Source: Escherichia phage vB_EcoM-689R6
Sequence record: ON470584
Strand: one strand, 5' to 3'
DNA: 43,469 nt
Below are positions 35,567 through 37,278 of the stretch, piece after piece. Within the stretch, counting starts at the first letter, position 1; each line of letters begins with the position of its first letter. A model generated the notes under the pieces. That model was not told the origin of the DNA, did no database searches, and saw nothing but the letters and a program-made list of their open reading frames with translations. The position numbers and the translations under genes are program-made.

Positions 35567-36619
35567 ATGAATACAAATGTAGGGCAGATCACATTAATTG
35601 ATCTAATTTCAATGCTTGAGAGAAAAGAACTAATAATTAACAAGGATTATCAGCGCGGAAATGGAATATGGCCACCATTTGCAAAGAGTTATTTCATAGA
35701 CACTATTCTAGAAAATTATCCTTTCCCCAAAATATATTTATATCAAGCATTTGACAGGACAAACGAAAGGCCAATTAAAGAAATTGTTGATGGCCAGCAA
35801 CGAGTAACAACTCTCGTTGATTTTTATAAAAACAAATTTGCACTTACTTCGGCATCGAAGAAGTATTCTGGCATGTATTTTAATGATTTGCCCGATGATG
35901 CAAAAAGATGTTTTATTAGTTATCAAGTTGAAACATCCACAGTTTATTCAGCAAGCAGGGCTGAATTACTCGAAATGTTTAGACGAATGAATGCTTATAC
36001 ATCTCCACTAACATCAGCAGAAAAACGGCATGCTACTTTTCAAGGTGCATTTAAGTGGTATATCGTTGAAAAAGCAGATACCCACGCTGAGCTTTTAGAG
36101 ATTTATAATATATTGTCACCCAAAATATTAGCCAGAATGGGTGATGCAGAATTTATCTCAGATATGGCAATACTCATTGATAGAGGGCTTTGTTCAAAGT
36201 CGGCACCTGCAACCGAAGCTATTTATAAAAAATACGATGATGATTTTCCTTTAGAGAATATCTATAACGAGAGAATTGATTATTTCTTCAATTTATTGGC
36301 GGAAGATTTTTCCGAATTACGTAATTCATTTATGATGAAATCGTATGTTGTTCACTCATTATTTTGTGCTATTACCGCATTAAAATTTGGTTTCCCCGGA
36401 AGTGATGAACTTGAAAATGAACTCGGTTTCACGGCTAACCCAAACTTTGATGTAAATCCTTCCCGTGTAATTCCGATTCTCTTAGAGATGGCTGATGCCC
36501 ATGAAATTCAGGACGAAGATGGCCCTTATGCGGCCTATGTAACAAGTTGTTTATCATCAACAACCAAGCTACCACAACGAACCACGCGCACAAAAGAACT
36601 GATTAAAGCATTCTTATGA
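35567..36619 (+). CDS. DUF262 (ParB/GmrS-like DGQQR) domain protein
   Basis: 350 aa; N-terminal motifs KDYQRGNGIWPP...FIDTILENYPFPKIYLY...IVDGQQRVTTL are the hallmark of DUF262-type domains; AT-rich; AGGAGA ribosome-binding site upstream. Confidence 0.7.
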   Translation: MNTNVGQITLIDLISMLERKELIINKDYQRGNGIWPPFAKSYFIDTILENYPFPKIYLYQAFDRTNERPIKEIVDGQQRVTTLVDFYKNKFALTSASKKYSGMYFNDLPDDAKRCFISYQVETSTVYSASRAELLEMFRRMNAYTSPLTSAEKRHATFQGAFKWYIVEKADTHAELLEIYNILSPKILARMGDAEFISDMAILIDRGLCSKSAPATEAIYKKYDDDFPLENIYNERIDYFFNLLAEDFSELRNSFMMKSYVVHSLFCAITALKFGFPGSDELENELGFTANPNFDVNPSRVIPILLEMADAHEIQDEDGPYAAYVTSCLSSTTKLPQRTTRTKELIKAFL

Positions 36620-37278
36620 GGTTTGATATGGACAAAATTTATCGAAATTTTATTCATAGGTGCAGCGTATATCAAGGCAAAGTTGATATTCTTCGTTTTA
36701 ATAGGATTGAATATGATGAGTGGACACATGCCAAATTGACTGAAGGGTTGATGTCTGATTTATGGCAAAATTGGTGTCTATTCTGTAGAAATCTCATCCA
36801 TAAATCTTGTAGAGGTGCAGTTTGTGCTGATACTACCGTTTTCGGCCCAAGAGTGACCCAGTATGGAAACTCCTGGCAACGACTTGGATATGAAGCAAAA
36901 AATATAAACGGCACAATAAAAAATAATGGACATAACAGTTTTCTTATCAGATATGAACCAACATGGGGAGATATTGACAAGATAGTAAATATAATCACCC
37001 ATCTTAATCCTAAAAATAAGAATTGTTTGTTAGCTGCATTTGGTATGGGGCTTAAGGATATTAACTACCTACAACTTGCAAGAAATGCATGTGCACATAA
37101 AAACGTCGAGACAATTGAGGAGCTGATTAACAAAACAAAGCTTTTTTATGACGTAACTACTTTAAAAAAACCCAGTGATTTCGCATGGTCTCTTAAAAAG
37201 GGGACTCATAGTTTTGCATTCTATACTTGGTTATATGAAATGAGAATCATTGCTAAAAATGCCATATTGACTTGTTAA
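36616..37278 (+). CDS. Hypothetical partner protein, possible divergent HNH/DUF1524-like nuclease
   Basis: 220 aa, start overlaps the DUF262 gene stop (ATGA). Several Cys/His clusters (WCLFCRNLIHKSCRGAVCAD; ITHLNPKNKN; ARNACAHKN). Function not assignable from sequence alone. Confidence 0.5.
   Translation: MRFDMDKIYRNFIHRCSVYQGKVDILRFNRIEYDEWTHAKLTEGLMSDLWQNWCLFCRNLIHKSCRGAVCADTTVFGPRVTQYGNSWQRLGYEAKNINGTIKNNGHNSFLIRYEPTWGDIDKIVNIITHLNPKNKNCLLAAFGMGLKDINYLQLARNACAHKNVETIEELINKTKLFYDVTTLKKPSDFAWSLKKGTHSFAFYTWLYEMRIIAKNAILTC

Follow-up and report, generated by a model that had tools for sequence, protein, structure and literature searches.

A DUF262-HEPN gene pair in the cargo slot of an e14-like prophage: a probable anti-phage defence operon of the PD-T4-2 design

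What is encoded by the small gene cassette that lies between the integrase gene and icd in an e14-like prophage of Escherichia coli? The question is raised by sequence record ON470584 (Escherichia phage vB_EcoM-689R6), a stretch of 43,469 nucleotides that was analysed at its full length and is called the window here. Two open reading frames (ORFs) on the plus strand, 35567..36619 (350 amino acids) and 36616..37278 (220 amino acids), are flanked by intE (34337-35467) and icd (37404-38654, minus strand, convergent). An earlier note, made from the letters of the sequence, had described them as an AT-rich two-gene cassette between integrase and icd and as a candidate anti-phage defence system. The first description is borne out by the ORFs, their positions, and the GC content, which is 0.349 over the cassette (35468-37300), whereas intE has 0.45, icd 0.506, and the remaining prophage 0.511. 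As to the second, the cassette is probably a DUF262-HEPN anti-phage defence operon, carried as prophage cargo and built on the design of the PD-T4-2 system. Judged from its sequence, it belongs to a known two-gene design, as a divergent variant that the catalogues lack, and is not a new kind of system. The candidate defence reading is reasonable because the DUF262 domain is genuine, the two genes form one conserved unit, the slot that they occupy has varied cargo, recognized defence proteins included, in other e14-like prophages, and their closest characterized relative is a validated defence system. The option of a split GmrSD-like enzyme, which the earlier note had kept open, does not stand.

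Gene 1 (35567..36619; this and the features of both genes described below are on the plus strand) encodes a DUF262 protein of 350 amino acids, of the ParB/Srx-fold nucleoside triphosphatase (NTPase) type. It has a helical C-terminal domain and is the proposed sensor or regulator of the pair. The assignment to DUF262 had been made earlier from short motifs, and the lack of a significant match had been named as evidence against it. Residues 15-158 (35609..36040) match the Pfam family GmrSD_N (DUF262, PF03235) with E = 6.7e-20 and 72.5 bits, above the gathering threshold of 33.2 bits, and the motifs are present, which confirms the assignment. In an alignment of 42 orthologues with 46-88% identity, Y28, Q29, and R30 of motif I (DYQR, residues 27-30, 35645..35656), all five residues of motif II (D75, G76, Q77, Q78, and R79 of DGQQR, 35789..35803), and F138 and N142 of motif III (FRRMN, residues 138-142, 35978..35992) are invariant. 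Motif III corresponds to the FxxxN motif named in PMC12137116. By analogy with published work on BrxU, SspE, and HEC-06, motif II is likely to bind and hydrolyze nucleoside triphosphate (NTP).

The AlphaFold2 model of protein 1 has a mean predicted local distance difference test score (pLDDT) of 88.2 and a predicted template modelling score (pTM) of 0.64; the latter leaves the relative orientation of the two domains uncertain. The N-terminal domain is alpha/beta. The C-terminal domain is all-helical from around residue 160 to residue 350 (36044..36616), with pLDDT mostly over 90 from residue 160 onward. No nuclease motif and no Pfam domain was found in this C-terminal domain, which probably binds nucleic acid. 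The best structural matches of protein 1 are BrxU and SspE. Among the PADLOC models, NsnA comes first (8.5e-32, 109 bits, residues 7-255), followed by PD-T4-2_A (9.5e-14). PHROGs places protein 1 in families without known function, and the sequence search against PDB chains returned nothing useful.

Gene 2 encodes the smaller partner. Its longest possible ORF starts at ATG 36616, and only this form has the 4-bp ATGA overlap with gene 1; the ATG at 36616 has no Shine-Dalgarno sequence. Judged from the sequence, ATG 36628 is the likelier start, as it is preceded by GAGG, the homologues are 216 amino acids long, and RefSeq uses the same start. Gene 2 is therefore given here as 36628..37278, encoding 216 amino acids, and the two genes are probably 8 nucleotides apart, a tight operon without overlap. 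Of the coupled, overlapping gene pair described before, the tight operon is retained and the overlap is not.

Protein 2 is most likely a HEPN-fold protein of a family without a name so far, and is proposed to be a ribonuclease (RNase) effector. No model in Pfam, PADLOC, NCBIfam, or PHROGs matched it, and the comparison of protein 2 and of its family profile with PDB chain sequences gave nothing useful. Its relatives are nevertheless many. The word-indexed homologue search returned 38, whereas the exhaustive profile search returned 726 cluster representatives (clusters at 50% identity) at E <= 0.001, of which 272 remain at E <= 1e-10. With few exceptions, they consist of a single domain and are 212-220 amino acids long. 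In 33 relatives, R156, N157, A158, and H161 (220-residue numbering) are invariant. In 98 relatives, reaching down to about 20% identity, only four columns are invariant: W113, R152, N153, and H157 (216-residue numbering). Three of these four belong to the sequence RNACAH at 37081..37098, which is R156-H161 in the longer and R152-H157 in the shorter numbering, and R[N/S]xxxH is kept in all 41 loci examined. The R-N-x-x-x-H is read as a HEPN motif, here a putative catalytic one, because it fits Rx4-6H, the signature of HEPN RNases, in which a polar residue commonly follows the Arg. RNAAAH of PD-T4-2B, the HEPN protein of PD-T4-2, aligns with it.

The predicted model of protein 2 is of high confidence and all-alpha, mostly helical with only short bridges. 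Its best structural matches are HEPN toxins of HEPN-MNT pairs (7ae2_A, 5yep_B, and 8xdj_A). The only Pfam families that recur among the 98 members do so below threshold; they are Abi_2 (seven members, best E = 0.0046) and HEPN_Swt1 (three members). One homologue carries the UniRef label "Abi-like protein". A different likeness had been suggested for protein 2 earlier, that with DUF1524/HNH nucleases, from a segment HLNPK and clusters of Cys and His. The library searches gave no DUF1524, HNH, or His-Me match. HLNPK (37000-37014) and the Cys and His residues do exist, but they are not a conserved metal or HNH site, because H129 varies and none of the columns that are invariant or nearly so among the 98 family members is a Cys.

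A second conserved element, EPTWGD (residues 114-119 of the 220-residue ORF, 36955..36972), lies between core helices 2 and 3 and is specific to this family. P115, T116, and G118 are invariant and E114, W117, and D119 at least 90% conserved in the 33 relatives; across the 98, the Trp never varies, and conservation of E, T, G, and D is 90% or higher. EPTWGD is nearly as strictly kept as RNxxxH, and PD-T4-2B has no counterpart of it. Possible roles are contact with the DUF262 protein, binding of the substrate, and a part in the active site.

Are the two genes inherited together? With the 33-sequence HEPN alignment, 25 loci were fetched from species-representative genomes of Gamma- and Betaproteobacteria, Verrucomicrobiota, Nitrospirota, Bacteroidota, Chloroflexota, Acidobacteriota, and Saccharimonadales; a Pseudomonas locus was added, giving 26. 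A full-length orthologue of protein 1 (37-62% identity) is encoded directly upstream on the same strand in 22 of the 26. Partial upstream DUF262 matches are seen in three loci, cut by the contig end in L012 and present only as fragments in L015 and L025; L010 begins at a contig end, and L028 is a marginal match. The DUF262 orthologue is also directly upstream of the HEPN gene in nine of ten IMG/VR loci. Where the DUF262 gene is full-length (26 loci), -1 to 27 nucleotides separate it from the HEPN gene, its product always has DGQQR, and the identities of the two proteins to those of the cassette are correlated (Pearson r = 0.93). The converse linkage was examined in 80 IMG/VR loci fetched with the DUF262 alignment. 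In about 33 cases, the ORF that follows a DUF262 orthologue, at identities as low as about 27%, has 186-228 amino acids and contains RNxxxH; other partners or none are seen only with more distant DUF262 proteins. In total, the two-gene layout is intact in more than 60 loci from many phyla, and the pair is co-inherited in at least eight phyla. That the pair is one conserved functional unit, as first proposed, is borne out by this linkage and by the co-divergence across phyla.

The HEPN gene is left uncalled in the Pseudomonas protegens locus (6047-6773 of L003). Counts from annotated proteomes are underestimates, since this small gene is often uncalled or without an accession, and the word-indexed search recovers so few of the relatives found by the profile search. 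Two other arrangements were observed among the more distant DUF262 proteins. In four related IMG/VR contigs (L085-L088), a DUF262 protein of 452 amino acids (near position 3001) is followed after 10 nucleotides by a protein of about 606 amino acids, and in L069 a DUF262 protein of 352 amino acids is followed by one of 341 amino acids. These partners have no RNxxxH and no match to either HEPN profile.

The closest characterized system is PD-T4-2. This system, from E. coli ECOR65, was described as "DUF262, HEPN" and validated in 2022 (Vassallo et al., PMC9519451), and a review lists it as a DUF262 + HEPN system (PMC10952713). T4 plaquing is reduced by the cloned system and by the copy in the native strain, and it rises when the native copy is deleted (PMC9519451). 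In the same study, its second coding sequence, PD-T4-2B, has "No ID" in Table S2 and matches HEPN_RiboL-PSP with an HHpred probability of 97.8%; H127A, in RNAAAH, was among four site-directed mutants whose mutated residues were reported to be essential to protection. The pairing had been noted computationally in the HEPN survey of 2013, where RiboL-PSP-HEPN proteins are "in operon with ParB" and the MAE_28990 HEPN proteins occur with a "ParB nuclease" (PMC3710099). A genuine PD-T4-2 locus was located by means of the published primers (gene A at 6001-7095 and gene B at 7100-7603 of the fetched locus). It lies at ssrA, beside the integrase of a P4-like satellite, and 17 of 5,426 complete E. coli genomes carry it.

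The two systems share their layout. Both consist of two co-oriented genes a few nucleotides apart, first that of a DUF262 protein of about 350-365 amino acids and then that of a small HEPN protein; both HEPN proteins have an RNAxAH motif at an equal relative position; and both pairs are integrase-adjacent cargo, in the P4-like satellite at ssrA and in the e14-like prophage at icd. Their DUF262 proteins are homologous (hhalign probability 97.8%, E = 1e-12, residues 9-201). They differ in that the DUF262 proteins are 25% identical over 166 amino acids (E = 8e-11) with the similarity ending around residue 200, that PD-T4-2A has DGLQR in place of the canonical DGQQR of protein 1, and that the partner has 216 amino acids here and 167 in PD-T4-2, the extra sequence here including EPTWGD. 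PD-T4-2 is experimentally validated, whereas the family of the cassette is known from sequence.

The link between the two HEPN proteins is more distant. Direct alignment of protein 2 with PD-T4-2B gives only "L..(R)NA.AH" (E = 0.12), and the profile-profile comparison reaches 37-41% hhalign probability over about 40 columns around the motif. A bridge profile was made from 16 divergent IMG/VR partners of about 205 amino acids. It matches the protein 2 family at 98.3% (E = 1.4e-14, 198 columns) and PD-T4-2B/HEPN_RiboL-PSP at 80.2% (E = 1.4e-5, 135 columns), with the motifs in register. From these profiles, we read the protein 2 family and PD-T4-2B as distant branches of one DUF262-associated HEPN assemblage.

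The position of the cassette is occupied by defence genes in some other e14-like prophages. In the alignment with K-12, the e14 backbone, consisting of the replacement 3' end of icd and its terminator, reaches around 37300 and then breaks. This is 22 nucleotides past the stop codon of gene 2; the cassette therefore exactly fills the slot between the intE stop codon and the backbone. The earlier note had placed lit at the same position in K-12 e14, and this is correct, as the slot there holds ymfD, ymfE, and lit. The cassette is present in nine of the 5,426 complete E. coli genomes, always adjoining intE, and the integrase and the attachment (att)-proximal segment 37301-37403 are found in about 500 E. 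coli genomes. Other e14-like prophages carry other cargo: an ABC ATPase (AriA 93 bits, NsnB 79 bits) and a hypothetical protein in H3, PtuA (794 bits) and a PDC-M01B HNH protein (381 bits) in DS566-2, three hypothetical proteins in MEI148-20EC, a TPR protein of 775 amino acids in 00-3076, and a KwaB fragment (166 bits) with hypothetical proteins in AHM8C160RI. Seven e14-like prophages thus have seven slot contents, and four include recognized defence proteins (Lit, PtuA with PDC-M01B, the AriA-like ATPase, and the KwaB fragment). The proposed hotspot for defence cargo is substantiated by this exchange. The slot proteins of MEI148-20EC and 00-3076 match defence models weakly or not at all and are further candidates.

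Outside E. coli, related pairs are found in other mobile contexts. In Kosakonia the pair is at a prophage end adjoining smpB/ssrA, in Klebsiella it is near umuDC and phage genes, and in IMG/VR it is within 1-2 kb of predicted prophage ends. On chromosome 2 of Vibrio cholerae its neighbours are short DUF645, acetyltransferase, and glyoxalase cassettes, in an integron-like array that looks like the superintegron; the two copies (8001-9700 of L030 and 5415-7114 of L031) are 55% and 44% identical to the pair in the cassette.

How would such a pair act? In BrxU, SspE, and GmrSD, the DUF262 domain binds and hydrolyzes NTP and gates a nuclease, according to the cited literature. In Menshen, an NsnA-type DUF262 protein is proposed to sense phage DNA and an RNase to execute the response, in a bioinformatic model (PMC12065111). 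By analogy, protein 1 would be a sensor and switch that meets a phage feature, most plausibly DNA, which may be modified. The conformation of protein 1 would change as NTP is bound or hydrolyzed at DGQQR; until then, protein 1 would hold the HEPN protein inactive. The released protein 2 would cleave cellular RNA, phage RNA, or both through R-N-x-x-x-H, translation would stop, and the infection would be aborted. For this specific order, with protein 1 as sensor and then protein 2 as RNase, the chances are about even.

Several points weigh against reading the cassette as a defence operon of the PD-T4-2 design. The relative from which the defence role is taken over is a distant one, with 25% identity in the DUF262 domain and, for the HEPN partner, nothing but the catalytic motif in common when the two are compared directly. 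The PADLOC model PD-T4-2_A scores 49 bits on protein 1 (residues 12-184), compared with 538 bits on the genuine PD-T4-2A. Protein 2 has no match at E <= 1 to the three PD-T4-2_B models or to PF18735, whereas the genuine PD-T4-2B, used as a positive control, scores 111-213 bits on the former. The 16 sequences of the bridge profile were selected partly for having RNxxxH, which qualifies the link of 80%. Foldseek found nothing significant for protein 2 in the PDB (best E = 1.4). The sensor and effector roles are assigned by analogy with GmrSD/BrxU/SspE and Menshen, since no publication on the mechanism of PD-T4-2 was found in the library searched. Finally, tblastn did not find the protein 2 family in 50,697 deposited phage genomes and 72,556 plasmids.

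It is possible, but rather doubtful, that the cassette represents a separate and widespread defence family, in which a DUF262 sensor of phage DNA, in the style of type IV restriction and possibly responsive to DNA modification, is wired directly to a HEPN RNase without an ATPase relay or a DNA nuclease, with EPTWGD as its own module and with a trigger and an RNA target unlike those of PD-T4-2. If so, it would serve as a minimal model, of two proteins, for the conversion of DNA sensing by a ParB-fold NTPase into RNA cleavage. The novelty is lowered, and no new principle is involved, because a prediction of the DUF262 + HEPN pairing dates from 2013 (PMC3710099) and the validation of one example from 2022 (PMC9519451). 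If the cassette is protective, a sizeable family missed by PADLOC v2, Pfam, NCBIfam, and PHROGs would be added to the defence catalogue. The profile of our family alignment (A2) with a rule requiring an adjacent DUF262 gene would let annotation pipelines recognize the family. The intE-icd interval is documented as a swap-in slot for defence cargo, and the pair offers a compact case of the control of a partner nuclease by a DUF262 NTPase, a question that PD-T4-2, Menshen, and Dazbog also pose.

The alternative that survives best, and still an unlikely one, is a toxin-antitoxin or addiction module that stabilizes the prophage, with a HEPN toxin constitutively neutralized by the DUF262 protein and with no dedicated phage sensing. 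The HEPN toxins among the structural matches of protein 2 are consistent with it, as are the tight two-gene operon on mobile elements and the occurrence in the integron-like array of V. cholerae. Integron arrays of the V. cholerae type are rich in toxin-antitoxin cassettes. On the other hand, the upstream protein is large (350 amino acids) and better conserved than the putative toxin (37-62% against 28-47% identity), it has an intact NTPase motif set that is unexpected for a simple antitoxin, and it is not an MNT nucleotidyltransferase. The closest characterized system, moreover, was selected for phage protection and gives it. Toxin-antitoxin function and abortive-infection defence are not mutually exclusive, and this alternative is therefore partly a sub-case of the defence operon preferred here. 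The HEPN-MNT pairs themselves and the Abi HEPN proteins (Abi_2/AbiD/AbiF) differ from the cassette, as the partner here is of the DUF262 NTPase type, not MNT, and the threshold of Abi_2 is not reached.

Slightly less likely again is an inverted division of labour, in which the DUF262 protein is the effector, a ParB-like nickase or nuclease, the HEPN protein is an accessory RNA-binding protein or second nuclease, and phage DNA, or DNA and RNA, is attacked. The naming of ParB-fold + HEPN operons as "ParB nuclease" operons in the 2013 survey (PMC3710099) speaks for it. In BrxU, SspE, and GmrSD, however, DUF262 is the NTPase and sensor and a separate DUF1524 domain cuts; the HEPN histidine of PD-T4-2 is reported to be essential; and the invariant RNxxxH argues for a catalytic HEPN protein over a structural one.

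A split type IV enzyme, with gene 1 as GmrS and gene 2 as a degenerate GmrD/DUF1524 protein that cuts modified DNA, is very improbable. Protein 1 does match GmrSD_N, has BrxU as its best structural match, and shares with GmrSD, BrxU, and SspE an N-terminal DUF262 with QR, DGQQR, and FxxxN motifs; PD-T4-2 also targets T-even phages with modified DNA. In those enzymes, though, a DUF1524 His-Me nuclease is fused or in the partner, and neither protein of the cassette has a DUF1524 match. None of the libraries searched gave a DUF1524, HNH, or His-Me match for protein 2, its mostly alpha-helical model has no evident beta-beta-alpha-metal finger, its best structural matches are HEPN proteins, and the His of HLNPK is not conserved. 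With no DUF1524/HNH domain and a helical HEPN-like protein 2, the split GmrSD-like enzyme is rejected.

A remnant of Menshen (NsnABC) that has lost its ATPase and effector is hardly credible: NsnA is the best PADLOC match of protein 1 (8.5e-32), but no NsnB-like ABC ATPase or NsnC is encoded in the locus, the two-gene layout kept intact in more than 60 loci speaks against a remnant, and the NsnA match reflects a shared DUF262 clade, since the genuine PD-T4-2A also matches NsnA (197 bits). Protein 1 does belong with the NsnA-like DUF262 proteins, a group in which the C-terminal domain is helical. Menshen itself has three genes, with the ABC ATPase NsnB between sensor and effector, whereas only two genes lie between intE and icd here; and NsnC has an inactive-PIN N-terminal domain with BECR or other nucleases and no HEPN domain. 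Protein 2 had no NsnB or NsnC match in PADLOC.

For Dazbog, no Dzb model was matched by either protein at E <= 1, on the assumption that PADLOC-DB v2.0.0 includes Dazbog as it includes other systems of the 2022 Dazbog paper (NsnA). Further candidates from recent studies were compared and set aside. WonAB of V. cholerae, an ABC ATPase with a PD-(D/E)xK nuclease, is unrelated. Sucellos and Esos of the integron "biobank" study are RexAB-like and a single gene, respectively, and are not of the cassette family. HEC-05, HEC-06, and HEC-08 of the "embedded defences" preprint are GmrSD-like single proteins or a zinc-finger HEPN and do not correspond to the cassette pair.

The expression signals of the cassette were read from the sequence. 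A Shine-Dalgarno sequence AGGAG (35555..35559, plus strand) stands 7 nucleotides before ATG 35567 of gene 1, and the GAGG of gene 2 (36618..36621, plus strand) overlaps the stop codon of gene 1. Around 30 nucleotides 5' of gene 1, the consensus scan found a sigma-70-like promoter (TTGAAC, 16-nucleotide spacer, TAAAAT; 35508..35535, plus strand; 9 of 12 positions matching), which is only a candidate because such sites are no commoner in the region than in shuffled controls.

The left border of the slot is intE (34337..35467, plus strand), the tyrosine integrase gene of the e14-like prophage, supported by Pfam matches to Arm-DNA-bind_1 (7.3e-37) and Phage_integrase (4.4e-18) and by the RefSeq name intE. 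The integrase is lambda-type, with the excisionase gene xisE alongside, upstream of the cassette. The right border is the conserved att-proximal e14 backbone downstream of icd (37300..37403), recognized from its homology to K-12 e14 and its frequency in E. coli genomes. Within it, the terminator scan found the GC-rich hairpin terminator of icd (37357..37381, minus strand; 11 pairs followed by a T-run), which faces the convergent end of the cassette. The annotated icd gene (37404..38654, minus strand) has as its 3' end, approximately 37404-37600, a replacement supplied by the prophage that holds the attachment junction. Below about 37600 its identity to K-12 drops from about 98-100% to about 90%, and in the K-12 annotation e14 begins 165 bp before the icd stop codon.

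The window is identical to a stretch of the chromosome of E. coli 22AR0747. The annotation of that chromosome has an e14-like prophage that looks complete (pinE, tail, head, terminase, lysis, regulation, xisE, intE), and after intE it lists a "DUF262 domain-containing protein", a "hypothetical protein", and icd.

Three other parts of the window were observed. Two methyltransferase genes of the prophage lie at 21863-22177 and 26867-27520, both on the minus strand: a truncated DNA methyltransferase pseudogene and an intact gene for a phage N6-adenine methyltransferase. Methylation of the prophage's own DNA might bear on self-tolerance of the putative DUF262 sensor. Between icd and rluE there is an AT-rich insert of about 1.7 kb (38655-40350), where the icd-rluE gap of K-12 is only 172 bp. 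At 39236-40020 on the plus strand it encodes a STM2901-family protein of 149 amino acids, which has no Pfam match, and a DUF1493 protein of 111 amino acids (Pfam 1.1e-29), with a 1-base overlap. This insert may be a small accessory island. At the other end of the window (1-1669), the invertase gene pinE lies beside a tail protein gene and two oppositely oriented tail-fibre-assembly genes, which is the usual layout of an invertible host-range segment.

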